Assembly (NCBI GenBank): GCA_963713825.1
Contig: CAVQNG010000003.1
Coordinates: forward strand, 1,472,001 to 1,536,000
Length of the DNA: 64,000 nt
Direction of reading: 5' to 3'
Source of the DNA: an uncultured Acidobacteriota bacterium
Lineage (GTDB): Bacteria; Acidobacteriota; Thermoanaerobaculia; Multivoradales; JAHEKO01
The notes under the pieces are model-generated. The model was not told the origin of the DNA. It did not search any database and worked only from the letters and a program-made list of their open reading frames with translations. The position numbers were made by a program, and so were the translations under genes. Of this stretch, positions 10,908 to 49,490 are shown one piece after another (the first letter of the stretch is position 1; each line of letters starts with the position of its first letter).

Positions 10908-11091
10908 CACAGGAATGCCTCGGGAGCCGTTCAGCTCGAAGGGCATCAGCCGATTCGGATGACGACTATAGAAGATTTCATCGAAGTGCTGGGATACCTT
11001 GAGTAAACTTGGCACGACCAGGTCGACGTTGATCGGGACCTGGAGCAGACTACAAGGAGCCAGGACGGCAGGCCTACAACGGTCGTCCAGG

Positions 11092-11844
11092 ATGAGAGTG
11101 ATTCAGTTTCTCCATGTGGGTAAGTCTTTCTCGGCTGGCCGGATTGCGCTGGACGACGTGAGCTTCCATCTCGAGAGGGGGGAGTTCGCCTTTCTGAGCG
11201 GCGCCAGTGGGGCAGGCAAGACCACCTTGCTGAAACTGATCTATCGCGAGATCGAGCCCAGCGCGGGCCAGATTCTGGTCAACGGCCGGAACGTCGCCTC
11301 CATCCCGCGCTCCAAGATTCCGTTTCTCCGTCGGACGATTGGTGTGGTCTTCCAGAATTTCCGGCTCATTTCTCGCAAAACAGTGCTCGAGAACGTCAGC
11401 TATCTGCCCAGGATCCTCGGCATGGGTCAGCAGGAAAGGAAGCGCCTGGCCTACAACACCCTGCGTCGCGTTGGGCTGGCTCACCGCATGAGTGCCTTTC
11501 CGAACGAGCTGTCGGGCGGAGAACAACAGCGCGTGACCATCGCGCGAGCTTTGATCAATCGTCCAGAGATCCTCATTGCAGACGAGCCGACCGGCAATCT
11601 CGACCCGGAGCTGTCTTGGGAGATTCTCAGGCTCTTTCTGGAGATCAACGGTAAGGGAACCACGGTTCTACTGGCCACTCATGAGCATAGCTACGTGGAT
11701 GCTCTGGGTGGTCGCTCTCTAGCGCTGGATCGCGGTCGCCTCGTTGCCGACGACCATGTGGAAGGGCATGTAGGGGACCTCGAGTCGGACTCCATCGAGG
11801 AAGCGGAAGCTCTGTCACAGCCTCCAAGAGAGAGGACGGTCTGA
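11092..11844 (+). CDS. ftsE: Cell division ATP-binding protein FtsE
   Basis: GASGAGKTT, LRRTIGVVFQ, LSGGEQQRV, ADEPTGNLD; coupled to ftsX. Confidence 0.93.
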   Translation: MRVIQFLHVGKSFSAGRIALDDVSFHLERGEFAFLSGASGAGKTTLLKLIYREIEPSAGQILVNGRNVASIPRSKIPFLRRTIGVVFQNFRLISRKTVLENVSYLPRILGMGQQERKRLAYNTLRRVGLAHRMSAFPNELSGGEQQRVTIARALINRPEILIADEPTGNLDPELSWEILRLFLEINGKGTTVLLATHEHSYVDALGGRSLALDRGRLVADDHVEGHVGDLESDSIEEAEALSQPPRERTV

Positions 11845-12740
11845 TGCTGTTCAGGATCTTTGGCTATTTCCTCGCCGAGGCCGCAGTGAGCCTGCGGCGC
11901 GGTTGGAAAGTCAGCCTGGTGGCCATCGTGATCATCGCCATGAGCCTCTTCATCGGGGGTACTTTCCTGCTGCTTACCTCCAACCTGTCGAGAGTGGTCG
12001 AAAGCTGGCGCGGAGAGGCTCGGATCGTCATCTATCTGAGCGGCGATGAAGTGGCGAGACGAGACTCCGAAGTTCTCCAGATCGCGTCCGCCCCTTCCTG
12101 GGTTTCGGGAGTCGAAGAGATCTCCGCGGCAGAGGCACGCTCGAGATTCGAAACGACGTTTCCCAGCGTCAGAGAGCTGTTCAAAGACTGGGAGGAGGAG
12201 CCGTTGCCACCGTCGTTGGAGGTTGCGATCGAGATCGAAGGCGTTGGGGAAGACGAGCTCGACGATTGGCTGATATCACTACGGTCGGATCCGGCTGTAG
12301 TGATGGTCGACGACGATCGCGATTGGCTCCGACAGTTGGAGGCGCTGATCGCCATCCTGACCGGTCTGGGCGCCGTCATTGGCCTGGTCCTGCTGACCGC
12401 GGCGATTTTCACGATTGCTAGCGTCATACGCCTCACCGCTTATCTGTACCGTGAAGAGATCGAGGTCATGCGCCTGGTTGGGGCGACCGAGCTCTACATT
12501 CGGGGGCCCTTTTATGTCGAAGGGGTGATTCAGGGTTTGCTCGGCGGCCTGCTTGCCATGGCGGGATTGTACGGCGGTTACCTGATCCTGAATCCCCAAG
12601 CCAGTACGACATTTCTCGGCAACGTCCTGGTGGACAGGTTCCTCTCCCCGGAAGCACTCCTGTCGCTTCTTCTTCTCGGCAGTCTGGCGGGCCTCTTTGG
12701 CGCGGTGCTGTCTCTCCGACGCGAAGAGCTGGGCCAATGA
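11844..12740 (+). CDS. ftsX: Cell division permease FtsX
   Basis: TM pattern, PLPPSLEV, EIEVMRLVGAT..YIRGPF..EG. Confidence 0.93.
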   Translation: MLFRIFGYFLAEAAVSLRRGWKVSLVAIVIIAMSLFIGGTFLLLTSNLSRVVESWRGEARIVIYLSGDEVARRDSEVLQIASAPSWVSGVEEISAAEARSRFETTFPSVRELFKDWEEEPLPPSLEVAIEIEGVGEDELDDWLISLRSDPAVVMVDDDRDWLRQLEALIAILTGLGAVIGLVLLTAAIFTIASVIRLTAYLYREEIEVMRLVGATELYIRGPFYVEGVIQGLLGGLLAMAGLYGGYLILNPQASTTFLGNVLVDRFLSPEALLSLLLLGSLAGLFGAVLSLRREELGQ

Positions 12741-13080
12741 GGGTTGAGGCAACTGGGCGTTCCTTCCAGCTGGCCTTTGAGGGCTTGAGGGTTGAATCGT
12801 CCGTCGCTTGCTCCGGCCGACCTTTGACGTAGTGGGAGCCACCTCCCATTCCTCTGGAGCCCTAGGCCCTTACGCCCCCACTGCCCTAAGCCCCTATTGC
12901 CTTCAATGGTGCCAGAGGTCCGTTCGGGTGGTCCGACAGGGGGCGCCTCGTCGAGCGCAGCGCAAGGACCATCGAAGGGCACAGTCGATGAGGCGCGATG
13001 ACGAGACGAGGTGGCGGCCCGTCCGTTGGAGTCTGAGTAGCCGCCGCCGTCCCCCTGCGGGCCACCCGGATGGACCTCCT
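12741..13080 (+). repeat. Composite intergenic repeat, copy 2 (module A 12775-12827; core 12901-13080)
   Basis: Ungapped match to copies 1 and 4 (150/180 identical to copy 4 by hand count). Confidence 0.92.
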
Positions 13081-13155
13081 GTAGGGCCCGCTCAACAGGG
13101 GAAGATCTCATCGAAGCGAAGCTCTTGCCCGACCTCGGCATGCGTTTGGAGCAAC

Positions 13156-13181
13156 AAAAAAGGGGCCGAAGTGGCCCCTTT
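13156..13181 (-). terminator. Intrinsic terminator of TPR gene
   Basis: AAAAAA-GGGGCC-GAAGT-GGCCCC-TTT hairpin; U-tract on minus strand. Confidence 0.8.
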
Positions 13182-13204
13182 CGAGTACTGCGGATCGAGA
13201 AGCG

Positions 13205-14374
13205 TCAGCCCTGAGGCGGTGGACCACCCGGGAGCTGCTTGAGCTCTTCTTTGAGCCGCTCTTCCTCTTCGGCGAGGGCGCGAATCGTTTCGTTCTCTTG
13301 CTCGATTTGTTGGTTGTACTCGTCGGTCTTCCGATTCTCTTCCACCCGAGCCATCGAGGCGCTGTCGCCAGCATTCTTGTAGGCAGTGACGGCCGCATCG
13401 TAGCTCTTCTGCTTCTCGTACACGAAGCCGAGCTGCTTCCAGACCGTTACCTTGTCGGCGCTCGAAGCGGCTTTGCCCAGAGCTTGTTTGAGCGTGCTCT
13501 CCGCGGTCTGGAACTGCCCGAGCTGGGTGAGAGCCTGGCCCTGGTAGTAGAGTGGCAGCCAGTCGTTGGGATTCTTGCCGGCCGCCTGTTTCAAAGTGGA
13601 CATAGCCCCGTCGTAGTCCTTACCACCGAGTTGGGCTCCAGCCAACAGCATCAAATTGTCGTAGCTGCCGTCGGCCGAGACGACTTTCTGTGCAGCGGTG
13701 GCAGCCTTATTGTAGGCACTGGTCTTGGCATCGCCACGGCTCGTGCGGCCCTGTCGCAGGAGAGCCTGTGCATAGGTCTTCTGCTTGTTGACGTCGTTTG
13801 GATCCAGCTGAACGGCTTTGGCCAGCGCCGTCGAAGCAGTGGCGCCATCTCCAGCCCTCAAGGCGGCAGCACCGTATTGGAACTGGATATTCGCATCATT
13901 GGGCTTCGTCCTGGCGGCTCGCGCCAGCTGGTCGAGTGCACTGTCGGAGTCGCCGGACTTTTCCAGGGCGAGGGCCATCATCTGATGCACGGCAGTCTGC
14001 TGAGCTGCGGGTAGCGACGAAGAGTCGATCCTGCCGAGCAGGCCCGCCGCGTCGTTATACTTGCCAGCGCTCAAATAGACCTTGCCGAGAGCTAGCTGCA
14101 CCCCGACGTTGCCAGGCTCGAGTTCCAGAGCCTTCTGCAGGTGGGACATCGCCTCCTGGTTGCGATTCAACTTGGCCAGGGTCTGGCCCAGCATGTAGTG
14201 TCCCTGAAAGACGTCGGGTCGCTCGTCGACGAATGTCTGGAATTGTTTGGCGGCCTCGGTAAAGTCTCCCGCTTTGAAGGCTGCGACCCCTTCATCCCAC
14301 CCTGCCTCGACCACCGCGACGGTTCCCAGTAAGAGAACAGCAAGCAAGTAACTGATGATCTGTCTTTTCTTCAT
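13205..14374 (-). CDS. Secreted tetratricopeptide-repeat protein
   Basis: RBS GGAGGAG then MKKRQ signal peptide; many TPR repeats; C-terminal coiled coil. Confidence 0.88.
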   Translation of the reverse strand: MKKRQIISYLLAVLLLGTVAVVEAGWDEGVAAFKAGDFTEAAKQFQTFVDERPDVFQGHYMLGQTLAKLNRNQEAMSHLQKALELEPGNVGVQLALGKVYLSAGKYNDAAGLLGRIDSSSLPAAQQTAVHQMMALALEKSGDSDSALDQLARAARTKPNDANIQFQYGAAALRAGDGATASTALAKAVQLDPNDVNKQKTYAQALLRQGRTSRGDAKTSAYNKAATAAQKVVSADGSYDNLMLLAGAQLGGKDYDGAMSTLKQAAGKNPNDWLPLYYQGQALTQLGQFQTAESTLKQALGKAASSADKVTVWKQLGFVYEKQKSYDAAVTAYKNAGDSASMARVEENRKTDEYNQQIEQENETIRALAEEEERLKEELKQLPGGPPPQG

Positions 14375-14654
14375 TGTAAGTACTCCTCCGTCGTTGTAGC
14401 CGCCAACGATCGCACTGTGGCCGAATACAGCATGAACACACCGACCAGGGCACGCTGTCCTCAACCCTCTCGAGCCGGATCTATAGGGCCTTGCATAGAC
14501 TTCGAAAGAACCCGGATGCGACAGCAAGAGGGCGGAAAGCACCGAGGATCGAATCGACCGTCGGCGCTTTCTCCATCCTACTCGATTGTAGACGGTCAAG
14601 CGTGCCGTACTGCTGGTTAGACAGCAGTGAACCGCAAGGCTGAACGTCGTCCTG

Positions 14655-14712
14655 AAAAAGAACCCGCAGCTCCGATGTCGGAGCCCTCGGAGATCCGCGT
14701 CGGACCTCCGAG
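14655..14712 (-). terminator. Tandem hairpins downstream of tonB, possible terminator
   Basis: Hairpins 14686-14712 and 14669-14684 followed on the minus strand by a U-rich tract; spacing non-canonical. Confidence 0.4.
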
Positions 14713-14723
14713 TTTGTTGCCGC

Positions 14724-15449
14724 CTATTGGAGGCGGAAATTGACGGTCAAATTGTAGATGACCGCCACCGGCTTGCCGTTCAGGGTGGCCGGCTCGAACT
14801 TCCATTTCTTGACAGCGTCCGCCGCAGCCGAGTCCAGACCCATCGGCAAGCCCTTGAGCACCTTGACGTTCGTCACGTTGCCCTGCTTGTCGATGATGGC
14901 CTCGACGATCACGACTCCCTGAACGCGCGCTTTGCGGGCGATCTCCGTGTACTGCGGCGGAGGAGAAGTGATCTTGACTGGTGGTGCGACATCACCACCG
15001 ACGCGAATCGGACCTTCGGGCTCCTCAGGCGGCGGACCCTCGGGAATCCCGAAGATGATGTCGGTGTCAGGCATGTCGATCTCGGGTTGGTCGATCTCTT
15101 CCGGCAGACGAATGGGCTCGGGCTCATCCGGCGTCGGATCCGGGATCGGCACCTTCTTGGAACGCTGCTTCGGAATATCTTGCTGCTGCTTCGGTGGTGG
15201 GGGCTTGAACCTCACCTGCTGCACGACATAGACCTTGGTCTTCTTGACCTCGCCAGCTTCCGCAATGATCTCGGGAACCTGGATGAGGAAGAGAATGACA
15301 TGGAGAATCACGGCGCCGATGACGGCGATACGCATGATCTTCCGGTCTTCGTCGTATTCGAGTGCGAAAGTTTCCTCGGCCGATGTGGCTACTGCCGGGG
15401 CACCTTTCTTGCCTGTCTTCTGGGGTACGTCTTTCTTCTCTTGGGCCAT
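14724..15449 (-). CDS. tonB: Energy transducer TonB
   Basis: TM with His, Pro-rich linker, [14 protein letters not shown]...GL...[12 protein letters not shown] TonB C-terminal domain. Confidence 0.92.
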
Positions 15450-15454
15450 AGCGA

Positions 15455-15889
15455 TCAGTACCAGAACATGTTGATTTCACGTTGGGTCGGGATGGAGACG
15501 TTCTTGACCTCCATCCCGATCTTTTCTGGAGCTTGTCGCAGCTCATCGAACACGCTGACCATGTAACCGTACTCGGTCATCTCATTGGCGCGGATAATCA
15601 CCGGCTTCATGGGGTTGCGCTCGAGCTTGGGCTTCAAATACTCGAGAATGTTCTCCAGGGGAAGGGGCTTGTTGTCAACCAGCAGGACGCCCCCGGGCTG
15701 GATCTCGATGAGAACGGACTCTTCCTTGTCGACCAACGGGCTGTCGTCCTCTTGCGGTAGCGAGAAGTCGATGCCACGGGTTGCTGCAAAGGTGGTGGTC
15801 ACCATGAAGTAGATGATCAGCAAGAAGGCGATGTCCGCCATCGAGGCGGTGGGGATCTCATCGTTGACCGATCCGCGTTTGAACTTCAT
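15455..15889 (-). CDS. exbD: ExbD/TolR family protein
   Basis: [22 protein letters not shown] with conserved Asp. Confidence 0.9.
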
Positions 15890-15892
15890 TCG

Positions 15893-16327
15893 TCAGCCCT
15901 CCGCACCGGAGTCAATGGTCTCCTGCTCGGAAAGCAGGTAGATCACTCGTGCCTTGGCTTGCTTGAGAGAATCGATGACACCATCGACGTAGCGATAGGG
16001 CACCGACTGATCTGCCTTGAGCACGAATTCCTTCTGCGGGTCCCGGGCGACAACATCCGCAGCGAAGGAGAGGACGTCCTCGGGATGAACCGGAACGCTG
16101 ATCTCCTCGCCACCGCTCACCCGGATCTGCCCGCTTTCGGTAATCGAGATATAGGCAGCTTTCTTGGGAATCTCCAGCCGGATCGTTGTCTTCGGCAGAA
16201 ACACCTGGGTCTTATCGACCTCGAAGTTGATGGTCACCATGAAGAAGATGATCAACAGGAAGGCGATATCCGCCATTGAAGCGGTTGGGATTCCCTGATT
16301 CTGAACCGATCGGACTCTCAGACGCAT
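15893..16327 (-). CDS. exbD: ExbD/TolR family protein
   Basis: [20 protein letters not shown]; LKAD..VPY. Confidence 0.9.
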   Translation of the reverse strand: MRLRVRSVQNQGIPTASMADIAFLLIIFFMVTINFEVDKTQVFLPKTTIRLEIPKKAAYISITESGQIRVSGGEEISVPVHPEDVLSFAADVVARDPQKEFVLKADQSVPYRYVDGVIDSLKQAKARVIYLLSEQETIDSGAEG

Positions 16328-22328: not shown

Positions 22329-22421
22329 GGGGATTCTCCTCCCAGACAAGATTGCCGGGCGGCGACGAGTTCTTCAGCTGGGGGCTGGGAGTGCGCGGAA
22401 GCCCTAGTCTCCGCTGTTCGC

Positions 22422-22850
22422 CTATTCGGCTGCCGTTTTCTTGGCGGTTGATTTCGTGGCCGCGGTCTTTTTGGCGGTCGTCTTCTTGGCGGCGGTCTTC
22501 TTTACCGCAGTCTTTTTGGCGGTCGTTTTCTTGGCGGCGGTCTTCTTTACCGCGGTCTTCTTGGCGGTCGTTTTCTTGGCGGCGGTCTTCTTTACCGCGG
22601 CCTTCTTGGCGGTCGTTTTCTTGGCGGCGGTCTTCTTTGCCGCGGCCTTCTTGGCTGGAGCCTTCTTAGCCGCTGTCTTGGTCGCCGTTTGGCTGCCCTC
22701 TACCTCGGCTACAGCCTCTTTCGTAGCGCTCTTCTTGGCAGGCTTTCGCTGCGAGGGCTTGACCTGAGCCAGTCGCTCGCGACGCCGTTGCCTCAGGCGC
22801 TTCTGCCGGCGTTGTCGTCGTCGTTTCAGCTCACGATCTTTTTCCCGCAT
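22422..22850 (-). CDS. Very basic histone-H1-like protein with KKT(A/T)(A/V) repeats
   Basis: RBS AGGAG; Arg-rich N-terminus; about 15 Lys/Ala/Thr pentapeptide repeats. Confidence 0.78.
   Translation of the reverse strand: MREKDRELKRRRQRRQKRLRQRRRERLAQVKPSQRKPAKKSATKEAVAEVEGSQTATKTAAKKAPAKKAAAKKTAAKKTTAKKAAVKKTAAKKTTAKKTAVKKTAAKKTTAKKTAVKKTAAKKTTAKKTAATKSTAKKTAAE
22431..22690. repeat. Coding tandem repeat, 15-bp unit with 45-bp higher-order period
   Basis: (ttcttggcggtcgttttcttggcggcggtcttctttaccgcggtc)-like unit repeated about 4 times. Confidence 0.9.
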
Positions 22851-37475: not shown

Positions 37476-38794
37476 TACAGATTCCTCAAGTCGATGGTGG
37501 TCTGGAGCAAATGTCGACGGAACCGGCGCTCGTCGTCGTCGTTGATGGTGGCGAGCGGCGAGTTCTCGAGTCTCTGAACCTGGGGCGCCGCGTAGTGCCG
37601 GTCGATCGTCTGGATCTGGGCGACAGTGTTGATCCGCACGTAGTAGAGGCGGGGAGCCCGCGGAGCGCCGGGAATCGTGTCGTCCCAGGGCGGCACCCAG
37701 GGAGAATCGTTCGGGTCATCACCTGGGGCGTTGAACAGCCAGTCGTCGTCTTCGCCGTTCTCTGTTTCGGTGATGACGATGTCGATCTCGCCGTCGCCGT
37801 TGATATCGGTCTGCGGCGGACCGACGTCACTATCGAAGCCCAGAGCTACCTGGAGCTCCGAGATCCCATCGGCGATGTCCACCGCAGCGGCGTTGGGGTC
37901 GAGAGCGTTATTGACCGCGTCTGTGTTGGGATAGACGCGGGCGACGGCGAGGGATGGAACGGGGTCGGGATCGGGGTCCCGCACATAAATGCGGTACTCC
38001 TCGAGCATGCCGACCGTTGCGACAGAAGAGAGTGCGCTCGGCAGTACCGGGGAGCCAAGATTCCCGGAAAGGTAGAGCTCCCCGTACTCGGCCGTGTGGG
38101 CGCCGCTGTTGATCGTGAAGTCGATGGTGACCTGGGTCCCCGGTATGTCCACGTTGCTGCTGGCCATTAACTCGACGACTGCGTAAATGCTCTCGTCAAC
38201 GGGGCTGACTAGAACAAGGGCCTCTAGACTGCTATTGCCGATGGCGTCCTCGAGAGGTTGGAGGTTTTGAGGGATTCCCGTAGGACTGGGATTGCGCACC
38301 ACGATCTTGCCACGCGTCGCCGACTGCGGATCGGTGGTGAGGCCCCCGGCCGAGTCGTAAAGCTGGAACGAGATCGGATCGGCGTTGTTGACTTGATAGA
38401 TGGGCGTGGTGAAGACCCCTCGGATGCTCAGAACGTCGGTTCCCTCGACGACCTTGGACTCCGGTTGACCGGGTACCGCATAGGTGTCGGCCGGGACGTT
38501 GTCCTGGATCGACAAAGCCGGCAGCAAGCGGACCCCCGCATTGTTCAGAACGTCCTGCAGACCGCCGCGGCCGGACATCCGAATGAAACGGACCATCTCG
38601 TTCTGAGCGACGCGCAAAGACTGCTGCATGTCTGAAACCTGCGTCTGGATCCGCGCCACTTCGGTGTTCTTCTCGAAGATCTGGTAGAGGCCCAGCAGCA
38701 CGATGATCGTGATGCCGAGACTGACGATCAGCTCGATCAGGCTGTAGCCGCTGGCGCGACTCGATGACGTTGGGCGATGTGGTGAGTGCCTCAT
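37475..38794 (-). CDS. pilW: PilW-family minor pilin
   Basis: G-YSLIELIV type IV leader; ADGISELQVALG.D; C-terminal LRN. Confidence 0.85.
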   Translation of the reverse strand: MRHSPHRPTSSSRASGYSLIELIVSLGITIIVLLGLYQIFEKNTEVARIQTQVSDMQQSLRVAQNEMVRFIRMSGRGGLQDVLNNAGVRLLPALSIQDNVPADTYAVPGQPESKVVEGTDVLSIRGVFTTPIYQVNNADPISFQLYDSAGGLTTDPQSATRGKIVVRNPSPTGIPQNLQPLEDAIGNSSLEALVLVSPVDESIYAVVELMASSNVDIPGTQVTIDFTINSGAHTAEYGELYLSGNLGSPVLPSALSSVATVGMLEEYRIYVRDPDPDPVPSLAVARVYPNTDAVNNALDPNAAAVDIADGISELQVALGFDSDVGPPQTDINGDGEIDIVITETENGEDDDWLFNAPGDDPNDSPWVPPWDDTIPGAPRAPRLYYVRINTVAQIQTIDRHYAAPQVQRLENSPLATINDDDERRFRRHLLQTTIDLRNL

Positions 38795-38809
38795 ATTCGA
38801 TCGCTCCCT

Positions 38810-39442
38810 CTAGAAGGCCTTCAGGCCGCGCAGACGGATATCAACCGGCTCGCCGGCGATGGCGCGCTCAGCCTGGCTCTCGATCTGGACGTCGACTTCC
38901 TTGAGATGGATGGCCCCAGGCAGACTGCCGCCGGCCAGGGGATTGTCGAGATAGCCGTCGTAATCGGCATCCTCGAGACCGATGATCTGGTCGATGATGC
39001 CGTCCAGGTCGTTGTCGATGACTCCGTTGATTCCGAACTGACGGATCGTCGTGGTTCGGTCCCAAAGTCCGAGCTCACCGACGGGAACCGTGTCCAACCA
39101 TTTCTCGTCGCCGACATAGTCGGGGTCGGGCCGGGTCCAATACTGTTGAACGACTGTCTCGGTTCCGGCAGTGATATCGAGCTCCGGGTTGTTGAATCGC
39201 ACCTGCTTGAAGATCTCGAGCTCGGAACGCCCATGGTTGCTCACCTGGGTCGACTCCCGTCCCTCGACGTTCTCCATGATGGAGCGCATGAACAACGGCA
39301 GGAGTCCGACCAGCACGACCAGAAGCAGGCCGGCGGCCACCAGAAGCTCGAGCAGCGTGAAGCCCTTGCCGGCGGAGCGCGACGGGCCGCGCCGCCTTCC
39401 TGGCGCCGCAATTGGGTGGTTAGTGCATCTCGACATCAACAT
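38810..39442 (-). CDS. pilV: PilV-like minor pilin
   Basis: G-FTLLELLVA leader; ATG 39442 after GGAGG; operon position. Confidence 0.78.
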   Translation of the reverse strand: MLMSRCTNHPIAAPGRRRGPSRSAGKGFTLLELLVAAGLLLVVLVGLLPLFMRSIMENVEGRESTQVSNHGRSELEIFKQVRFNNPELDITAGTETVVQQYWTRPDPDYVGDEKWLDTVPVGELGLWDRTTTIRQFGINGVIDNDLDGIIDQIIGLEDADYDGYLDNPLAGGSLPGAIHLKEVDVQIESQAERAIAGEPVDIRLRGLKAF

Positions 39443-39461
39443 TCGAATCCTCCAATTCCTG

Positions 39462-40094
39462 CTAGAGCCATACCCAAGGCTTGTCATTCTGGTTTCGAGT
39501 CTGCCAGTCGCCCAGGTCCGGGTCCCACTTCCGCATCTGGACCCGGGCCGTAGCTGCCGGCTGGACGCGGATCTCGAGAAAATTCCCTCGTCGGTCGCTA
39601 TAGCGAACGGCGCCGATATCTCGGATCGAGCCGTTGGGGTCGAAGATGGCGATGGGCTCCGTTCCGTTGTCCGTGAAGAGCCTGATCGGACCATCGGGGT
39701 CAGCGGGAGGGGCCTGGAATAGGACGTTCTCCGGCAACCCGTACCGACCGAGCTCGTAGTCCGTGGCTCGATGGGGCTCTCCCGCCACCGGGTTGTAGAA
39801 CATGTCGGGTGGAGTGGCGACAGCCACGCCGTCCACGTCGGCGAACGCGACGACTTCGTTCCTGGCCAGATCGAAGCGCACCACGGTGGGGACGTTCTGT
39901 CGGACCGCTTCGGACCTCGCCCGCTGCATCAAAACGGAGGTTTCGCGTGCGATACCTTCCAACTTGGCACGGTGAATGACGCGAATCAGATTGGGAATGC
40001 CGATCGTCGCCATGATGCCGATGACGGCGACGATGACGATCATCTCGATCAGGGTGAATCCAGACCGCGGACGTTGTCTGCTGCTCCGATGCAT
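39462..40094 (-). CDS. fimT: FimT/FimU (GspH-like) minor pilin
   Basis: G-FTLIEMIV leader; ARSEAV..N..V; ATG 40094 after AAGGAG. Confidence 0.82.
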   Translation of the reverse strand: MHRSSRQRPRSGFTLIEMIVIVAVIGIMATIGIPNLIRVIHRAKLEGIARETSVLMQRARSEAVRQNVPTVVRFDLARNEVVAFADVDGVAVATPPDMFYNPVAGEPHRATDYELGRYGLPENVLFQAPPADPDGPIRLFTDNGTEPIAIFDPNGSIRDIGAVRYSDRRGNFLEIRVQPAATARVQMRKWDPDLGDWQTRNQNDKPWVWL

Positions 40095-40127
40095 ATGCAA
40101 GCTCCTTTTCCGGACGGGTACGTTCAA

Positions 40128-40143
40128 AGCAAGGGCAGTGCCA
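40128..40143 (-). promoter_or_regulatory. Sigma-54 promoter of the minor-pilin/pilY1 operon
   Basis: Minus strand TGGCAC-TGCCC-TTGCT, exact consensus, 34 nt upstream of the fimT ATG. Confidence 0.82.
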
Positions 40144-40253
40144 GATGTCCAGAGCTCTGGCGTGAGAGGGATAAGCACTTTTATGGCAACAGTTTGAGTC
40201 GTTTTCCGTGGGTTCTGGGCGGTGTCGCGCCTTCTCTTGATTCTGTTACCTAT

Positions 40254-41969
40254 CTACCCAAAAACGTCAACAGGGAAGGAGAGAGTGACTTTGGTGCCGC
40301 CACCCGAACGGGCCTCGAGCTCGACGGTTCCGCCGTGCAGGGTCACGATACGGTGGGTCAAAGAGAGCCCTAAACCGACGCCGTCCGGACGGCCCGTAAC
40401 GAAGGGCTGAAACAATCGCTCACGGACGTTGCTGGGAAGCCCAGGGCCCCGGTCTTCGATGACGAGGTCGACCTGTCGCTGGCCGCTCTGCAATCGCGCT
40501 TGAATGGGCTCTACGACACCGATCCCCGACTGAGCCTGGGTGGCGTTGTGCAAGAGGTTTCTGACGGCTCGCTCCAGAAGCTGAGAATCTCCCTGGAGAA
40601 TCAGGGGAGTCGATCTGGCGATCTCGATCTCGACGGCTGACCCTTCGAGGGCAGGGTCGGCGGCTGCTCGGCGGACGACCTCGACCAGATTCACCGCTTC
40701 GATGCGCGTTGTTTCCGGTCGGGCGAAGGCCAGAAAGTCCTCCAGGACTCGCTGCAGGTGGTCGCTCTCTCTGCGAATCTCGCTCAGGAAGTCCGTGATC
40801 GACTCCTTCTCGGGTCTCCGCTCGATCAGCGTCAGGTAGCCGCGCAATGTCGCCAGGCTGTTGCGAAGCTCGTGCGCGAATCCGGCCGCCAGCTCGCCGA
40901 GTTGCGCCAGACTCGTCGCCAGCTGTTCCTGATCAGCCAGCCGCTGTGTTTCTGTCAGGTCGACGAACAGAACCAGATGGCCGCGTACCGCCCCGTCGTC
41001 CCGACGCAAGGCGTGGACGGTCAGGCCGAGCAGTCGGCTGCCTTGCGAGGTCTCGATGACGACCTCCTGTCGCGGCAATCCGGTCGCCTGGTCGACCGCC
41101 TTGGCCAAGGCATCGCAGAATGAGGCGTGGTGGGCCAGATAGTCCGTCGCGGCAACTGGCTCGGGAGGTGGGTCGATCTCCAGCAGCTCTGACCCTACTG
41201 GATTGAGTGCCAGCACGAGGCCGCCCTTGTCGAGCAGCAGAAAGCCGCTTTCCAAACTGGGTGCAAGAGTCCGCTGGAGTACCGCTATGTCGTCCTCGGT
41301 AGCCTCGTGATCGGGCTCGCGAAGCGACGCCATGGCCTTCTCGACGGTGGTGATGAGGAAGGTCACCTCGTCCTCGTCACCCGGTTCTCCTCCCAGGGTA
41401 CGGGCCTGCCGCAGAAGGGTGTCGAAGGGTCGAATCAAATTCGGTAGAAAGAGCAGCACCAATCCCATCAACGCCACGTCTACTGGTAGCACGACCCAGA
41501 GCAATCGTTGTGCGGTCCGCCGTTGACGGTCCAACTGATTGGCGGGCAGATCGATCCGTAGGACTCGGGCGCTCTCGGTTCCTTCCAGAGGAGTGAAGGC
41601 GACGACTACAGGTCCCACCTGGGCGTTGGGTCCGATGGCCGATGTCTGGGATAGCTGGGGTCCGGTTCCGAAGTCACCATAGGACACCAATGGGTTTCCC
41701 TGGTGGTCGATGATGGCGATGCTCTGAGCCCTTGGAGCGCGGCGATGGAGAGTGGCTTGAGTAGGCAGTGGGCCCGTAGCAAGAGTCGAAGCCAGCTGGC
41801 GCGCCAGAGTCGATGCTTCGATCTGCCGTTCCTCGATCAGAAGCTGGACTCCACTCCGATAGCTCAGAACGGCAAAACCGGAGAGCAATACGAGAAGGAA
41901 GAGTATCGCCGGCAGCAGAACGGCGACCTCCCGCCTGAGGCCCAACTGAAACCAGCGTGATGGCATCAT
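40254..41969 (-). CDS. Sensor histidine kinase (PilS-like)
   Basis: Two TM helices, PAS-like region, AHELRNSL H-box, NLLHNA, DRGPG, GVGLGL. Confidence 0.9.
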   Translation of the reverse strand: MMPSRWFQLGLRREVAVLLPAILFLLVLLSGFAVLSYRSGVQLLIEERQIEASTLARQLASTLATGPLPTQATLHRRAPRAQSIAIIDHQGNPLVSYGDFGTGPQLSQTSAIGPNAQVGPVVVAFTPLEGTESARVLRIDLPANQLDRQRRTAQRLLWVVLPVDVALMGLVLLFLPNLIRPFDTLLRQARTLGGEPGDEDEVTFLITTVEKAMASLREPDHEATEDDIAVLQRTLAPSLESGFLLLDKGGLVLALNPVGSELLEIDPPPEPVAATDYLAHHASFCDALAKAVDQATGLPRQEVVIETSQGSRLLGLTVHALRRDDGAVRGHLVLFVDLTETQRLADQEQLATSLAQLGELAAGFAHELRNSLATLRGYLTLIERRPEKESITDFLSEIRRESDHLQRVLEDFLAFARPETTRIEAVNLVEVVRRAAADPALEGSAVEIEIARSTPLILQGDSQLLERAVRNLLHNATQAQSGIGVVEPIQARLQSGQRQVDLVIEDRGPGLPSNVRERLFQPFVTGRPDGVGLGLSLTHRIVTLHGGTVELEARSGGGTKVTLSFPVDVFG

Positions 41970-42742
41970 GGGAGACCGTTGAAGTAGAGAGCCAGGAAGT
42001 CGCGGCAGAAGAGCGAGACGAGGCCGCCCAGGGCCAGAAAGACACCGAACGGTAGCCTCGAACGGAGTCCAACCCGACCGGTCAGCAGCAGAGCGATGCC
42101 TGTCAAGGCGCCGGTCAAAGAGGCAACGAACAACGTTGTCAGGACTCCCTGCCAGCCGAGGAAGGCTCCGATCAGGGCCAGCATGTTGACGTCGCCCAGG
42201 CCCATGCCCTCTTCGTTGCGCAGCCAGAACCAGAAATTGATCAGCAGGATGAGCAGACCAGCGCCGATCACGGCACCGACGAGTGCATCCATGAACGAGG
42301 TGTAGGGATGCCAGGCCCGCAGAGCCAGACCGAGCATGAGGCCTGGCAGCGTGACGCGGTCAGGGAGGAGGAAATGCTCCAGGTCGATCGCCGCCAGCAA
42401 CACCATCAGTGCGGTGAAGACAATGGCGATCAACGCCTCGGCTGTGAGCCCGAACCGAAGAACGCAAGCCACAAAGGCGGCCGCCATGAGGCCTTCGATG
42501 AAAGGGTAACGCCAGGATATGGGAGCTCGACAATGGCGACAGCGGCCCTTCAGCAGGAGAAAGCTCAAGACGGGAATGTTGTCCCTGGCCTTGATGGCGC
42601 CATCGCAGAATGGACAGCGCGACCGAGGCCAGACCGTGGATTTGCCGGACGGCAGGCGGTGAACCAGAACGTTCAGATAGCTGCCGACAATCAACCCCAA
42701 GAGGGCGGCATAGAGCAACAAGAGAGGGGATTGGGCCACCAT
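41966..42742 (-). CDS. pilD: Prepilin peptidase
   Basis: GSYLNV..RLP, CPFC/CRHC, ID..H.LLPD, GMGLGDV, PFGVFL. Confidence 0.95.
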   Translation of the reverse strand: MVAQSPLLLLYAALLGLIVGSYLNVLVHRLPSGKSTVWPRSRCPFCDGAIKARDNIPVLSFLLLKGRCRHCRAPISWRYPFIEGLMAAAFVACVLRFGLTAEALIAIVFTALMVLLAAIDLEHFLLPDRVTLPGLMLGLALRAWHPYTSFMDALVGAVIGAGLLILLINFWFWLRNEEGMGLGDVNMLALIGAFLGWQGVLTTLFVASLTGALTGIALLLTGRVGLRSRLPFGVFLALGGLVSLFCRDFLALYFNGLP

Positions 42743-42745
42743 GCC

Positions 42746-44104
42746 TCACTCCATCACGCAGCCGGTGATGACCCGATCGAGCACGCTCACACCAGCCTGA
42801 AAGGCCTCGACGGAGATCTGCTCGTCCGGGCCGTGGATTCCTCGCAGGCTGCCACTGTCGAGCATGAAGGGCGAGAATCCGTAGGCCGGGATCTCCCGCT
42901 GTCGAAAGTAACGCGCATCGGTGATCCCTGGGATGAAAGCTGGGGCCACCGGTGCTCGCTGCTCGAGAATCTCCTGCAGGCAATGAAAGAACGGAGTATC
43001 CGTCGGCGACGGGGCGCTGGGAGGCGCCGACAACAGGACCTCGAGCTCGACATCGCTGCCAACGAGTTGACGGATTTCGGTCAGGAAGGCCTTCTCGTCG
43101 ATGTCGGGAAGTAGGCGAATATCGATCAGGGCACTGGCTTGGTCCGGCGCCGCATTGAGACGCTCTCCCGCCTCCAGACCATTGATCTGGATGCTGTCCA
43201 GAAAGTAGTTCGGCATACCCGGCATCAGCCGGGTCGACGGCTCCGGATGGCTGAAGATCTCATTCATGTTCGCCACGACCTCCTGGAATCCCCGTGGCTC
43301 CATGGGTGCCACAGCTTCGAGATAGCGTCTGGCCTCGGGCGTGACGCGGAAGTCGAGCGGCCGGTCCAGGAGGCGATTCAATCCCCGAATGAGTCGATGG
43401 GGTGCGGTGTGTAGATTGAGGGTCGAGCCATGGCCGGGCCTGCCGGCTGCCGTGGCTCGCAGCCAGAGCGGCCTCTTTTGGGCCACTTCGATGCCCCACC
43501 AGACGACCCGGCCTTGTCGGACGCGGTTCATGCCGCCTTCTCCCAAGACGGCGACGACATCTCGAAAGAGCTCTGGATGACTTTCGACTAGCCACCCGGA
43601 GCCTTGCTCTCCCCCGGTTTCCTCGTCGGTGACGGCGAGAAAGGCAAGCCCTCTTGTCAGCCGCGAAATCTGCTTGCTCGCTTCGATGAAGGACCAGAGG
43701 TGGGCGATGCCCAGGCTCTTGTCGTCGACGGCTCCCCTGCCAAAGAGCGTGCCACCCATGATCTCTCCACCATAGGGACGCTGGGTCCACCCCGAGCCGG
43801 CCGGCACGACATCCGCGTGGTGGAGCAGAACGACGGTTTCCTTGGCCCCTGCAGCGGGCTCGAGATGCGCATAAAGGCTAGGTCTGCCCTCGGGCGACAC
43901 GAGCCATCGAGTCGCGATTCCGTGGTGATGCAGTACGTCGCGGAGGTAGGCAGCCGCTTCTTCCGCTCCGGCCGGTGTCGAAGAGTCGATTCGCAAGTAG
44001 TTCTGGAGCCATTCGAGCGCCAAGTCGGAATCGCTTCCTGCGCCTCGGACGAGAGCAGGAGTGAGAATCAGAAGGAAGAGGAGGGCCGGTACCGAAGCTC
44101 GCAC
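42746..44104 (-). CDS. Secreted M20/M25/M40 metallopeptidase
   Basis: HADVV, GRGAVDDK, DEETG, EGG, GHGS, TDAR, IHGPDE; start inferred at a GTG downstream of the pilin terminator. Confidence 0.85.
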   Translation of the reverse strand: MRASVPALLFLLILTPALVRGAGSDSDLALEWLQNYLRIDSSTPAGAEEAAAYLRDVLHHHGIATRWLVSPEGRPSLYAHLEPAAGAKETVVLLHHADVVPAGSGWTQRPYGGEIMGGTLFGRGAVDDKSLGIAHLWSFIEASKQISRLTRGLAFLAVTDEETGGEQGSGWLVESHPELFRDVVAVLGEGGMNRVRQGRVVWWGIEVAQKRPLWLRATAAGRPGHGSTLNLHTAPHRLIRGLNRLLDRPLDFRVTPEARRYLEAVAPMEPRGFQEVVANMNEIFSHPEPSTRLMPGMPNYFLDSIQINGLEAGERLNAAPDQASALIDIRLLPDIDEKAFLTEIRQLVGSDVELEVLLSAPPSAPSPTDTPFFHCLQEILEQRAPVAPAFIPGITDARYFRQREIPAYGFSPFMLDSGSLRGIHGPDEQISVEAFQAGVSVLDRVITGCVME

Positions 44105-44162
44105 GGTTGGTGCCGAGTGTAGCAGGCGATGCTGCCAGTAATGTGCAAACAAATCCACAAAG

Positions 44163-44198
44163 AAAAGGGGGCGCCGCGACTCGCGGTGCCCCCTTTTT
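44163..44198 (-). terminator. Intrinsic terminator after major pilin
   Basis: AAAAGGGGGCGCCGCGA-C-TCGCGGTGCCCCCTTTTT hairpin with A/T tracts on both sides. Confidence 0.85.
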
Positions 44199-44222
44199 GG
44201 ACCTATGGTTGATTCAGGTCGA

Positions 44223-44765
44223 TTAGTCGATTCTCGCGCCGGCAGGATAGCGCACGAAGAAGCCGTCGGACCACACGATGTCCTGGTCATAGTCGGTAGC
44301 CAGGAACGGGCCCATATTGTAGGTGCCCTGGAGGTTGCCGTCTGTGCGGCCTGGGCTGAAGATGCCCATGACCTGCGCGGTCAGCGGGTTGCCGGAGTAG
44401 TAGTATTCGTAGTTGTTACCCCAGCCATCCCTGTTCGGGACTTCCTGGATATAGAACATGGTAGAGCTGACGTAGAGCATGCTTAGCAGCGCGTCACCCC
44501 CGCCCGTCATCTCCGTTAGGTCGCCTTGACTCCACTCACCAGTCGTACCAGCCGCAGCGGCACCGATCTGGTCGGTCAGCCATGAGAACCAGGAAGCACC
44601 GACATCACGCATGTCGCCGACGGTGCGCTTCTGCTTCGCCTTCTGCAAGGCGTCGAGCAAGTTGGGAATCAAGATCGCCGCGATGATGCCGATGATCGCT
44701 ACGACGATCAGGAGCTCGATCAGGGTAAAACCCTTTTGGCCCCGGCGTCTGTTGAGTCGCATCAT
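44223..44765 (-). CDS. pilA: Major type IV pilin / GspG-like pilin
   Basis: QKG-FTLIELLIVVAIIGI leader; DGWG motif; own sigma-54 promoter, RBS GAGGAG and terminator. Confidence 0.82.
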   Translation of the reverse strand: MMRLNRRRGQKGFTLIELLIVVAIIGIIAAILIPNLLDALQKAKQKRTVGDMRDVGASWFSWLTDQIGAAAAGTTGEWSQGDLTEMTGGGDALLSMLYVSSTMFYIQEVPNRDGWGNNYEYYYSGNPLTAQVMGIFSPGRTDGNLQGTYNMGPFLATDYDQDIVWSDGFFVRYPAGARID

Positions 44766-49160: not shown

Positions 49161-49490
49161 CTTGAGACGGCCGATCGGATTAGGGATCTCCCTCGTCTGC
49201 GGCCTCACGCGACCATGCCCCTCCGACGAGGGAGACCCGTGGCCCGATCTACCACCCTCAAGACACATCGAGATTCCGACTACTGACTCACCCCCTACGC
49301 CCCTATAGCCTTGACCGGTGCCAGAGGTTCGTCTGGGTGGTCCGACCTGTGGGAGACTGAAGAAGTGTTACCCATGTGGTGATACACAACCGTTACCTAT
49401 GTCCTGACACAGAACACGCAAGGGGCTCCCCTACAATGCCGACGCCGCCCCCCTGCGGGCCACCCGGACGAACCTCTACTAGTAGAGGTT
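49161..49490 (+). repeat. Composite intergenic repeat, copy 3 (module B 49162-49302; core arms 49324-49346 and 49438-49476, interior replaced)
   Basis: Module B aligns ungapped to 56554-56694 (123/141 identical by hand count); core arms match copies 1, 2 and 4. Confidence 0.9.
49361..49416 (+). mobile_element. Isolated IS481-family-like terminal remnant nested in repeat copy 3
   Basis: Two 25-bp direct repeats GTTACC(C/T)ATGT... (19/25 identical) ending in ACA; lower GC than surroundings; no transposase. Confidence 0.55.

Follow-up and report, generated by a model that had tools for sequence, protein, structure and literature searches.

A structured, insertion-polymorphic repeat with a covarying three-way junction in Acidobacteriota

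The Y element in the window

The window, i.e., the whole stretch of 64,000 nt that was analyzed (GCA_963713825.1, contig CAVQNG010000003.1, positions 1,472,001-1,536,000, forward strand), contains copies of an interspersed unit of 166-172 nt, which lie 7-44 kb apart amid ordinary housekeeping genes. We call this unit the Y element and label the genome to which the window belongs G000. The Y element folds into a three-way junction, formed by a closing stem P1 (21+5 bp) and two hairpins, P2 and P3. The closing stem joins both ends of the unit and consists of 21 bp (P1a), a small internal loop and then 5 bp (P1b). A 9-bp stem at 13010-13048, pointed out in a preliminary description of this DNA, is the P3 hairpin of the second copy. 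The features are as follows:

1324-1489, + strand: copy 1, core; P1a 1325-1345/1468-1488, P3 1420-1428/1450-1458
12884-12913, + strand: copy 2, 5' leader; C-rich octamers (CCCCTAnG type), then a conserved run of about 18 nt abutting the stem
12914-13079, + strand: copy 2, whole Y core; covariance model R1 match 12911-13082, 191.6 bits
12915-12935, + strand: copy 2, 5' arm of P1a; pairs with 13058-13078 in a 21-bp helix
12939-12943, + strand: copy 2, 5' strand of P1b (GGGGG); pairs with 13050-13054; between P1b and P1a lies an internal loop (3x3) that contains an invariant A
12944-13008, + strand: copy 2, hairpin P2; P2a 12944-12953/12999-13008, P2b 12955-12958/12993-12996, variable apical region 12959-12992
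13010-13048, + strand: copy 2, hairpin P3; 9-bp stem 13010-13018/13040-13048, 21-nt loop 13019-13039
13050-13054, + strand: copy 2, 3' strand of P1b; partner of 12939-12943
13058-13078, + strand: copy 2, 3' arm of P1a; partner of 12915-12935
49293-49479, + strand: copy 3, remnant; outer arms left (49293-49346 and 49438-49479), core swapped for the right end of an IS481-family element (49340-49445)
56723-56888, + strand: copy 4, core; P1a 56724-56744/56867-56887, P3 56819-56827/56849-56857

The + strand of copy 2 folds with -111.7 kcal/mol (z = -5.6), and RNA-library contigs of other Y copies lose their match to it at 12914 and 13079, the borders of the core. The 5' leader is moderately conserved among 60 copies. 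Copy 1 belongs to a subfamily of five members with a re-written P2a. The replacement core of copy 3 has 99% identity to the end of an IS that resides inside another Y copy (G000:C3:766595-767936).

The P3 stem had been read as GGTGGTGGC/GCCACCGCC in copy 1 (1420-1428/1450-1458), GGTGGCGGC/GCCGCCGCC in copy 2 (13010-13018/13040-13048) and GGTGTCGGC/GCCGACGCC in copy 4 (56819-56827/56849-56857), and all three readings are exact. The two double substitutions said to preserve pairing are real and affect stem position 5 (G-C in copies 1 and 2, T-A in copy 4) and stem position 6 (T-A in copy 1, C-G in copies 2 and 4). Of 60 standard-length copies, 58 have C-G at position 6, one has A-U and one U-A. 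At position 5, 37 copies carry a G.A mismatch, 15 G-C, 5 G-U, 2 A-U and 1 U-A; the three copies read previously thus represent the paired minority at this position, since most copies hold G.A there. The outermost, loop-closing pair of P3 is C-G in 57/60 and U-A in 3/60 copies. A fixed loop of 21 nt ending in AGTCTGAGTA holds for the three copies read, but not genome-wide, where both the length (20, 21 and 22 nt in 25, 34 and 1 of the 60 copies, respectively) and the end (exact AGTCTGAGTA in 39/60) vary. The bulged A described as conserved has a companion: two unpaired A residues, one between P1a and P1b and the other at the P2/P3 junction, are invariant in 60/60 copies. The pseudoknot proposed for copy 4, in which the apical region of P2 would pair with the loop of P3, finds no support, as the loops lack canonical covariation and their duplex reaches -11.06 kcal/mol versus -11.26 kcal/mol after shuffling. 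A search for consistent internal pairing within the variable P2 apical region was also negative.

In the genome as a whole, nhmmer finds 111 Y matches, among them 75 near-full copies, which are intergenic and scattered over all large contigs. Several contigs of the assembly break or end at Y copies.

Covariation of the fold and the strand under selection

Covariation was assessed by counting pairs at 49 scored positions and comparing the counts with those for shuffles and slid partners. In the 60 copies of the genome, paired cells make up 90.5%, both partners have changed in 12/49 pairs, and the covariation score of 0.125, versus 0.100 for shuffles, was reached by 0/500 of these. Across genera (44 sequences), 46/49 pairs have changed on both sides with 90.8% of cells paired (shuffles 64.2%, slid partners at most 46.7%), and the score rises to 0.628 (shuffled 0.154, slid partners at most 0.102), although the cross-genus alignments were fitted to the structure of the model and the counts therefore lean towards it. 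A set dominated by a second family (16 of 21 sequences) has both-side changes in 39/49 pairs, 88.0% of cells paired and a score of 0.608 versus 0.139 shuffled. Folding that does not rely on any alignment recovers a closing helix of at least 15 bp in 59/60, 44/44 and 21/21 sequences of the three sets, respectively. Covariation, for which a look at more copies had been proposed beforehand, is thus above shuffles at both levels, modest within the genome and very strong across genera.

P1a has 96.8% of its cells paired in the 60 copies, and across genera all 21 of its pairs show changes in both partners. The pair with the strongest covariation in the family lies in P2 (C-G 35, U-A 19, G-C 5, non-pair 1), where a tandem G.A/A.G also alternates with U-A/C-G and A-U/C-G. 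At the three-way junction, the helices are separated by only 0, 1 and 1 unpaired residues. The sequences of the arms are wholly unlike between genera, yet they still match each other. It is therefore well supported that a folded single strand is under selection, and that the fold is not kept by descent alone.

G-U pairs on one strand are A-C mismatches on the other, and their counts speak for the + strand. In the window's own genome, there are 365 G-U versus 84 A-C cells, with a single fixed C.A accounting for 55 of the latter; across genera, the counts are 114 versus 32, and at rarely varying sites 44 versus 21 (p = 0.006). The RNA free energy points in the same direction, since the + strand is more stable in 52/60 own-genome and 36/44 cross-genus sequences. 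As its stems are almost all Watson-Crick, the second family gives a weak strand signal (G-U 15 versus A-C 10, no significant bias), and there the minimum free energy favors the - strand, the + strand being more stable in only 2/21 sequences. This is probably caused by C/A-rich loops on the + strand. As loop composition dominates the free energy in this family, we judged the strand on the G-U and A-C counts. With G-U outnumbering A-C, the + strand is favored as the selected strand in the window's own family. The earlier proposal that selection acts on a folded single-stranded + molecule, either RNA or ssDNA, is supported by covariation and by these counts, with the proviso that the strand bias is weak in the second family.

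The same data bear on a simpler explanation, namely that the Y element is a MITE without any single-strand function. The arms of the closing stem would then co-change because a transposase binds both ends, and template-switch correction, acting on quasi-palindromes as the DNA replicates, would preserve the complementarity of the internal inverted repeats. The closing stem indeed doubles as terminal inverted repeats, 21-bp arms at the borders of the unit, as is typical of MITEs. Arms that differ between genera and stay matched would also result from co-evolution with a transposase, and the almost purely Watson-Crick stems of the second family, without strand bias, fit as well. However, both mechanisms are strand-symmetric, whereas G-U exceeds A-C in 7/7 lineage groups, and the tree-based origins of single-step variants lead to G-U in 79 and to A-C in 21 cases. 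As the preliminary description had noticed for most variant positions, the five polymorphic pairs of the closing stem alternate among U-A, U-G and C-G only; among the 60 copies, they pass through U.G and never through C.A, and template switching should erase such persistent majority U.G pairs. Moreover, the internal hairpins covary too (both-side change across genera in 8/9 pairs of P3 and 9/10 pairs of P2a), and hairpin loops of 20-34 nt do not resemble a dimeric DNA-binding site. We regard this explanation as highly unlikely.

A single strand under selection could also be ssDNA. The Y element would then be the substrate of a strand-specific enzyme (of the HUH/Y1, RAYT or IS200/IS605 type, or an attC-like recombinase), and the strand bias would reflect the processed strand. 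G-T wobble pairs form in DNA too, DNA parameters make the + strand more stable in 58/60 and 38/44 sequences, and the borders of the unit coincide with the base of a hairpin, as in REP-type elements. Against this speaks that up to 5/21 pairs of the closing stem are G.T, which weakens a DNA hairpin more than an RNA hairpin.

Distribution, mobility and candidate partners

Covariance models detect the Y element in 26/45 genomes of its own family and in 18/23 sampled genomes of the second family. It thus occurs in at least two families of a single order, which probably belongs to the Acidobacteriota, class Thermoanaerobaculia. Copy numbers range from 1-7, the matches per genome in the second family, to about 80 per genome, with intermediate values in G058 (26-30 matches) and G023 (11-15). 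No Y match was found in plasmids and phages.

Copies of the Y element are gained, lost and replaced between sister species. At the site of copy 1, G000 and G003 carry a Y element in the same orientation and G004 has a long variant that is inverted, and the sites of copies 2 and 4 are filled in G000 only (0/3 other genomes each). The site of copy 4 is without a Y element in G001, G003 and G005. The octamer array described for the leader of copy 2 is present without a Y element at the empty site in G005, and such C-rich arrays may be the target motif. Insertion polymorphism would also be expected of a MITE. Two comparisons of filled and empty sites show no clear target-site duplication, though other repeat modules blur the junctions, which are ambiguous because the neighboring modules differ between species. 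Among the 111 matches in the genome, there is no longer, autonomous IS that combines Y ends with a transposase. The only gene inside any of these matches belongs to an unrelated IS481-family insertion, and split Y copies are explained by this insertion, by deletions or by solo halves. No transposase was found beside Y copies.

Y copies prefer certain sites. They sit mostly in intergenic regions at gene ends that already hold other repeat modules, and many are flanked by a REP-like hairpin module that is separate from the Y element. Between convergent genes lie 35/71 classified copies, compared to 635/4021 intergenic regions genome-wide (p = 5e-11). In tandem gene contexts, 14 copies are co-oriented and 15 anti-oriented, and because of this lack of bias a role in cis in read-through transcripts cannot alone explain selection of the + strand. 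Apart from TPR-linked paralogues, there is no recurrent gene neighbor in the genome. A cluster of 16 flanking proteins was rejected as a partner, since it is held together by TPR repeats (sulfatases, kinase, tricorn-type protease), and a cluster of four, which includes an ECF sigma factor (one member scanned), was not taken as a partner either.

Searches for known families were negative. Over the 64-kb window, no Rfam 15 model reaches its gathering score, with HEARO, Y RNA, Acido-1, Acido-Lenti-1 and self-cleaving ribozymes included. With E up to 10, the interval 12700-13250 yields five chance-level matches, all far below gathering, one of which overlaps the Y core (12.8 bits, - strand). The genome, which is 96% complete, has 0 matches to TnpB (PF07282), to reverse transcriptase (PF00078) and to Ro60/TROVE (PF05731). 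Several classes were discarded on such grounds: a repeat derived from a retroelement (retron, group II intron, SINE-like), as the genome is without reverse transcriptase; a bacterial Y RNA, as there is no Ro60/TROVE, no Rfam match and no similarity of the stem sequence between genera; a hammerhead-type ribozyme, as the junction has so few unpaired residues and no ribozyme model matches; and an integron attC site, as the copies are dispersed among housekeeping genes and do not form a cassette array beside an integrase.

In favor of the ssDNA explanation, G000 carries four HUH Y1-domain genes (313-363 aa, HxH-type motif), members of a family that is multi-copy in relatives. The absence of a link to the direction of transcription and of a promoter would also fit a life cycle at the DNA level. 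However, the Y1 genes are flanked neither by Y copies (none within 8 kb) nor by other repeat modules (no signature of the REP-like module within 3 kb). The genome distributions differ as well: the Y1 query has no match in G058 and G023 (the latter 99% complete), which are rich in Y copies, whereas G015 has 23 Y1 matches and no Y match. A RAYT link was discarded for these reasons. The lack of TnpB also argues against an enzyme of the IS200/IS605 type. Moreover, ssDNA transposition of this type gives a strong bias relative to the direction of replication, and the orientation of Y copies is even with respect to GC skew (25 + and 25 - at positive skew, 10 + and 11 - at negative skew), so that there is no such bias. 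Taken together, selection as ssDNA seems unlikely, and RNA is more likely to be the selected molecule.

If the selected molecule is RNA, the Y elements could be genes for small RNAs, transcribed from non-consensus promoters of their own. Some or all copies would give rise to a trans-acting RNA of about 170 nt, and their large number would reflect duplicated genes or pseudogenes, in a SINE-like manner. Selection acts on the + strand regardless of how the neighboring genes are oriented, some unpaired residues in the junction and the loops are shared by different genera, and the copy number in the second family is low. One orthologous copy is strongly conserved, too. The Y copy between ruvA and ruvB is identical in 166-168/168 positions in three species, far beyond synonymous sites (0.90-0.92 identity at third positions of ruvA). 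This copy is, however, antisense to the operon. Constraint on single copies is also indicated by copy 1 of G000, which differs from its counterpart in G003 in 39/174 positions, whereas the third positions of the flanking genes are only 0.58-0.63 identical. In the genus with 80 copies, however, the high similarity of orthologous copies could result from gene conversion or replacement and not from purifying selection, and two Y copies at a shared site in the second family are only 93/169 identical (flanking genes 83-88%).

Signs of an own transcription unit were sought and not found. Copy 2 has 0 sigma-70-like promoters, and a terminator-like hairpin of the neighboring gene stands between that gene and the copy. 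Upstream flanks from several genera, aligned at the base of the stem and inspected by eye, share no promoter-like block, and no terminator follows the stem on its 3' side. Contigs from RNA libraries (four runs) do cover the Y core; they are strandless and could reflect DNA carry-over, and those that cover the core of copy 2 have unlike flanks and represent other Y copies. As there is also no reverse transcriptase to turn the RNA back into DNA, we consider a family of small-RNA genes distinctly unlikely.

A proposed folded RNA module and its relation to known repeats

Starting from the observed fold, covariation, strand bias, insertion polymorphism, site preference and the conservation of one orthologous copy, we suggest a model in which the Y element is a selected, mobile element that acts as a folded RNA module. 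Once transcribed, it may form a stable structure in intergenic or 3' RNA that is probably sensitive to RNase III or binds a protein, and a trans-acting enzyme would be responsible for its spread. The RNA nature, the function and the movement of the element are what we infer. For this explanation as a whole, our confidence is a little better than even.

The Y element is a non-autonomous structured repeat of the bcr1/ERIC kind, and the family itself is a newly found example of known but poorly understood mobile structured elements. The bcr1 repeat of the Bacillus cereus group is described as an interspersed intergenic repeat of about 155 bp without a gene of its own, whose distribution is not conserved among close relatives and which is perhaps a special class of mobile sequence; it has a predicted cruciform-like fold with two stem-loops on a closing stem and RNA-level compensatory changes, is flanked by 5-bp direct repeats and is transcribed (PMC3184786). 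The Y element resembles bcr1 in its size, the absence of genes, the patchy occurrence among relatives and the closing stem with two stem-loops and compensatory changes. The likeness is one of description, a relation in sequence not being expected because the phylum differs. Direct repeats of 5 bp, as reported for bcr1, were not seen in the two site comparisons for the Y element. As a further difference, the structure of the Y element is shared by two bacterial families, and almost all of its pairs covary. ERIC/IRU (127 bp) and the related RU-2/YPAL are imperfect palindromes that are intergenic or transcribed and occur in both orientations (PMC3184786, PMC2759123). The Y element shares with ERIC internal insertion and deletion variants and conservation across a bacterial family. 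However, ERIC forms one long, simple hairpin, and its terminal repeats are flanked by TA. The Y element has a three-way junction instead, at which some residues are conserved, and a TA-type duplication was not observed. RNA-type compensatory change is found in ERIC as well.

Other repeat classes share fewer traits. Like REP/BIME/REPIN, the Y element forms GC-rich mosaics with other modules at gene ends, is bounded by a hairpin and occurs in a genome with Y1 genes; REPs, however, are single hairpins of 20-40 nt, and the Y1 genes are neither flanked by nor co-distributed with Y copies. Correia/NEMIS MITEs are also short, non-autonomous and insertion-polymorphic, have terminal inverted repeats and form a long hairpin if transcribed, and Correia RNA is cut by RNase III. 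The Y element differs from them in that no cognate IS or clear target duplication was found, that its internal hairpins covary, and that its pairs are strand-asymmetric. With IS200/IS605-derived palindromes and the omega RNAs of TnpB/IscB, it has in common that these are multi-copy, structured, non-coding sequences of 150-300 nt, tied to mobile DNA and with a strand-specific fold; in contrast to these, the Y element comes without TnpB, without a HEARO or other Rfam match, without a bias in replication strand and without a recurrent adjoining nuclease gene.

A bolder interpretation is that Y elements represent a hitherto undescribed class of structured molecules with a function, either RNA or, possibly, folded ssDNA. 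They would be mobile and at the same time under purifying selection at individual loci, such as that of the near-invariant copy between ruvA and ruvB in three species, and would spread through an acidobacterial order without a recognizable transposase, TnpB or reverse transcriptase. We think that this is unlikely. If true, it would mean either that a new route of mobilization recognizes three-way junctions, or that the RNA has been domesticated for a cellular role, for example as a processing or protein-docking module.

The repeats bcr1, ERIC and BOX have been known for decades, and we know of no clear explanation of their movement or of the purpose of their folds. The Y element offers clean material in this respect: a junction of about 170 nt with covariation over two families, a measurable strand bias, copy numbers from 1 to about 80 per genome, sites that are filled in one species and empty in its sister species, and at least one orthologous copy with much stronger conservation than synonymous sites. 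A model of the Y element in RNA family libraries would stop confused annotation and assembly of Acidobacteriota genomes from metagenomes, and such an entry is useful because contigs end at its copies. The Y element is also a testable case for the question whether structured repeats act as RNA or as ssDNA.

Fold of the Y element and its copies

The hairpin at 13010-13048 is one arm (P3) of a larger unit, the Y element, an interspersed repeat of 166-172 nt that folds as a three-way junction. Mutual information, helix scans and RNAalifold with covariance weighting all led to one architecture, as follows.

P1a: closing stem, 21 bp, uninterrupted
Internal loop between P1a and P1b: 3x3, containing an invariant A
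P1b: 5 pairs, then a nearly perfect three-way junction
P2: P2a of 10 positions, P2b of 4 bp and a variable apical region of 34 nt
P2/P3 boundary: one invariant A
P3: 9-bp stem with a loop of 20-21 nt; 13010-13048 in copy 2

A repeat scan of the window found three complete copies, each some 205 nt long (copies 1, 2 and 4, at 1285-1489, 12875-13079 and 56684-56888) and a fourth locus, copy 3 at 49293-49479, that has kept the outer arms alone. The three readings of the 9-bp stem and the 21-nt loops in the preliminary description match the sequence exactly, and the pairing it claimed holds in these three copies, but it is less tidy family-wide, since 37 of 60 copies have a G.A mismatch at position 5 of P3. 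Covariation in the family is strongest at the opening pair of P2a (C-G in 35, U-A in 19 and G-C in 5 of the 60 copies, with one non-pair); deeper in P2a, 42 copies have a tandem G.A/A.G where others have U-A/C-G (10) or A-U/C-G (5). The folding energy of copy 2 is -111.7 kcal/mol for the + strand (z = -5.6) and -101 kcal/mol for the complement (z = -3.0).

The genome to which the window belongs (5.42 Mb in 38 contigs, with a per-contig G+C of 56-63%, the window being C3:1472001-1536000) holds 111 matches by iterated nhmmer, 75 of them near-full, 73 distinct and 60 of standard length; they lie on either strand and diverge from each other by roughly 12-27%. Contigs C13 and C16 carry identical copies at or close to their ends, a third such copy is internal to C14, and the short contigs C26 and C27 are near-duplicates of the 976-981 kb region of contig C3, which carries a copy. 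It seems that these repeats cause breaks or duplications in the assembly.

In copy 3 the odd core consists of the right end of an IS481-family insertion sequence, at 99% identity, and this insertion sequence is the sole gene found inside any Y copy among the genome's matches. It lies, with rve, rve_3 and LZ_Tnp_IS481 domains, within the P3 region of a copy at C3:766595-767936 (L239), and the end at window 49340-49445 is all that remains of such an element inside copy 3. The match between the two means that the insertion sequence struck Y at one internal position at least twice, or that a single event was later copied.

Covariation and strand

Within the genome, a MAFFT alignment of 60 copies (A2) was tested against a structure that we had specified. 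Paired cells amounted to 90.5%, both sides had changed at 12 of 49 pairs (5.4 in shuffles), and the covariation score was 0.125 against 0.100 in shuffled alignments (reached by 0 of 500) and at most 0.063 with slid partners. RNAalifold alone recovered P1, P2b and P3 from this alignment and missed P2a. This signal, though real, is modest owing to the close relationship of the copies.

The cross-genus alignment (A4) consists of 44 matches, in 7 lineage groups, to the covariance model R1, which was built from A2. Here 90.8% of cells were paired, as against 64.2% when shuffled and at most 46.7% with slid partners, and both sides had changed at 46 of 49 pairs (score 0.628 vs 0.154). For 21 matches to a second model, R2, of which 16 come from another family of the same order (the second family), the figures were 88.0%, 39 of 49 pairs and 0.608 vs 0.139. 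Both alignments were fitted to the model structure, which can inflate covariation, a known effect according to passages of PMC11234323, and each sequence was therefore also folded alone. An end-to-end closing helix of at least 15 bp formed in 59/60, 44/44 and 21/21 sequences of the three sets, with mean fold z-scores of -3.9, -5.9 and -8.0. The preliminary description had proposed RNAalifold on all copies, and a lack of significant covariation with more copies would speak against it; covariation exceeds the shuffles in all three sets.

G-U cells in the stems outnumber A-C cells 365 to 84 in A2, where 55 of the 84 are one fixed C.A in P2a, and 114 to 32 in A4, where the excess recurs in all 7 lineage groups (39:6, 6:4, 17:6, 11:2, 15:2, 16:10, 10:2). 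By arithmetic from the pair counts, reading the - strand would leave 80.9% of cells paired in A2 (90.5% on the + strand) and 86.9% in A4 (90.8% on the + strand). When the 60 copies were placed on a tree, 79 single-step departures from the majority pair led to G-U and 21 to A-C, beside 26 double changes between Watson-Crick pairs, these origin counts being rough since the tree is poorly resolved. Rarely varying sites alone give 44 to 21 (p = 0.006). Five polymorphic pairs of the closing stem show only U-A, U-G and C-G, the very states that had been described for it. Mutational strand bias is excluded as the source of the G-U excess, because Y faces either way with respect to genes and replication. 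Orientation does not follow GC skew (25 + and 25 - at positive skew, 10 + and 11 - at negative skew), whose sign changes cleanly near 800 kb in contig C3. RNA parameters make the + strand the more stable one in 52/60 and 36/44 sequences, and DNA parameters in 58/60 and 38/44.

In the second family, the stems consist almost entirely of Watson-Crick pairs (G-U 15, A-C 10) and the - strand folds better, the + strand being more stable in 2/21 sequences with RNA and 6/21 with DNA parameters; this is attributed to + strand loops rich in C (39%) and A (27%). As the second family's signal is weak or contrary, the strand claim rests on the window's own family, in which the two strands lack the equal support that would have spoken against a folded + molecule. 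Next to this inequality, an explanation in terms of purely double-stranded DNA, with which the second family's Watson-Crick stems agree, is quite improbable. The folded + molecule is supported, strongly as regards the fold and moderately as regards the strand.

Surroundings, gain and loss of copies

Gene context was taken from a rough gene caller of our own (4059 calls, 86% coding). Y lies between convergent genes in 35 of 71 classifiable copies, compared with 635 of 4021 regions genome-wide (p = 5e-11); the others are tandem (29, of which 14 co-oriented and 15 anti-oriented) or divergent (7), and further copies overlap a gene call (2) or lie at contig ends (2). All four window loci are convergent, amid ordinary housekeeping genes. 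A REP-like module, in which a G-rich decamer precedes a GC-rich palindromic hairpin, recurs in the flanks (261 signatures in the genome, 76 within 400 nt of Y), as does a second hairpin module. REP-like or terminator-like modules stand at window 12789-12839, 1080-1176, 56556-56694 and 49164-49302, in either orientation and often in tandem, and similar hairpins adjoin Y copies in other genera. Just 5' of the core, at 12884-12905 and upstream of most copies, are C-rich octamer arrays of the CCCCTAnG type; 10 of the genome's 32 strict arrays (at least 2 units) are near Y. All three modules are also found without Y, and octamer arrays are present at Y-empty sites in two sister genomes of the genus, G005 and G001 (L090, L201); these arrays may be the insertion target.

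Elsewhere in the window, a tandem array of 15-nt period at 22383-22709 (about 15 overlapping registers, 62-88% identity) lies partly inside a small ORF call (22441-22767, +). A cluster at 38679-44765 and 15789-16291 encodes several proteins with prepilin-type N-terminal methylation motifs, one with a GspH domain; its genes share a repeated 5' segment, and two adjacent paralogs of 144 aa have segments that are 87% identical.

The sites of copies 1, 2 and 4 were compared with five sister genomes; in those not named below for a site, contigs break there. G001, G003 and G005 lack Y at sites 2 and 4; at site 2 they hold both flanking genes side by side, with the upstream modules and octamer array retained in G005. 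Site 1 is occupied by a like-oriented copy in G003 and by an inverted long variant of 217 nt in G004. Insertions of Y are thus polymorphic, and certain intergenic regions have been struck repeatedly. Between copy 1 and its counterpart in G003, 39 of 174 aligned positions differ, and over a third of these lie in P2a, both strands of which are re-written as a block; in the two flanking genes, third codon positions are just 0.58 and 0.63 identical. In the second family, a copy between ruvA and ruvB is 166-168/168 identical in three species, with ruvA third positions at 0.90-0.92 (Poisson p <= 1.5e-4). At another shared site the copies are 93/169 identical between genes of 83-88% identity, which points to replacement or rapid compensatory change. 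The ruvA-ruvB copy (L227, L228, L229) is antisense to both genes; one of the species has a second, inverted copy beyond ruvB, with ruvB inverted relative to the other two, in what looks like an inversion between two Y copies.

No TnpB domain, reverse transcriptase or Ro60 was found in the genome, which is 96% complete, and Y has no recurrent flanking gene family beyond TPR-linked paralogs. There are four paralogous Y1 HUH-domain (IS200-like) genes of 313-363 aa (two ORFs of 313 and 363 aa, two open frames of 314 and 340 aa), none of which is adjoined by Y or the REP-like module.

C3:1031156-1032094, Y1 gene
C3:1152157-1153095, Y1 gene
C3:1296426-1297331, Y1 gene
C5:483000-483905, Y1 gene

The Y1 protein family occurs in 35 of 45 genomes, is multi-copy in relatives and reaches 23 matches in one, G015, which has no Y; the query found no match in G058 and G023, though both hold many Y copies. 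That the fold acts as single-stranded DNA, the preliminary description's other option beside RNA, is unlikely, with the stability of the + strand under DNA parameters on its side and this disjunct occurrence of Y1 and Y on the other.

Distribution, transcription and kind

BLAST finds Y in 5/5 other genomes of the genus and 0/35 other genomes. R1 matches 26/45 genomes of the family and 12/20 genera, counts that include the window's own genome and one match-less unpublished genome, and many genomes have multiple matches. The architecture persists in distant copies, as do a few unpaired residues, with the helix sequences re-written. Among 151 sampled genomes of the class, R2 matches 24, namely the window's own, 5/5 of its family and 18/23 of the second family, with 0/122 in fifteen other families; plasmid and phage collections gave no match. 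For one protein encoded in the window, the closest named relatives, at 56-61% identity, come from metagenome genomes of Thermoanaerobaculia (Acidobacteriota), which gives a rough taxonomic placement.

Sediment metatranscriptome runs contain parts of the region (checked over 11000-15500), and contigs of one run cover the Y core. These RNA-library contigs, from other Y copies and readable neither for strand nor for true expression, have loose ends at 12914 and 13079, which mark the borders of the unit. No sigma-70-like promoter was found around copy 2, and a terminator-like hairpin (13182-13158, - strand) lies between the downstream gene and the element.

Curated RNA families show no detectable relation to Y, and in the open-access library searched, no paper was found to describe an acidobacterial element of this sort. 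The closest known kind is bcr1 of the Bacillus cereus group, according to passages of PMC3184786 a transcribed repeat of about 155 bp whose position is not conserved between strains, which is flanked by 5-bp direct repeats and in which compensatory changes keep a cruciform-like RNA structure of two stem-loops. As far as these passages go, Y is of the same kind, but in another phylum. Together, our data bear out the original observation as a whole, and the Y element joins the structured, non-autonomous interspersed repeats as a new one, which probably, if with no great certainty, acts as RNA, its variant as a small-RNA gene included.
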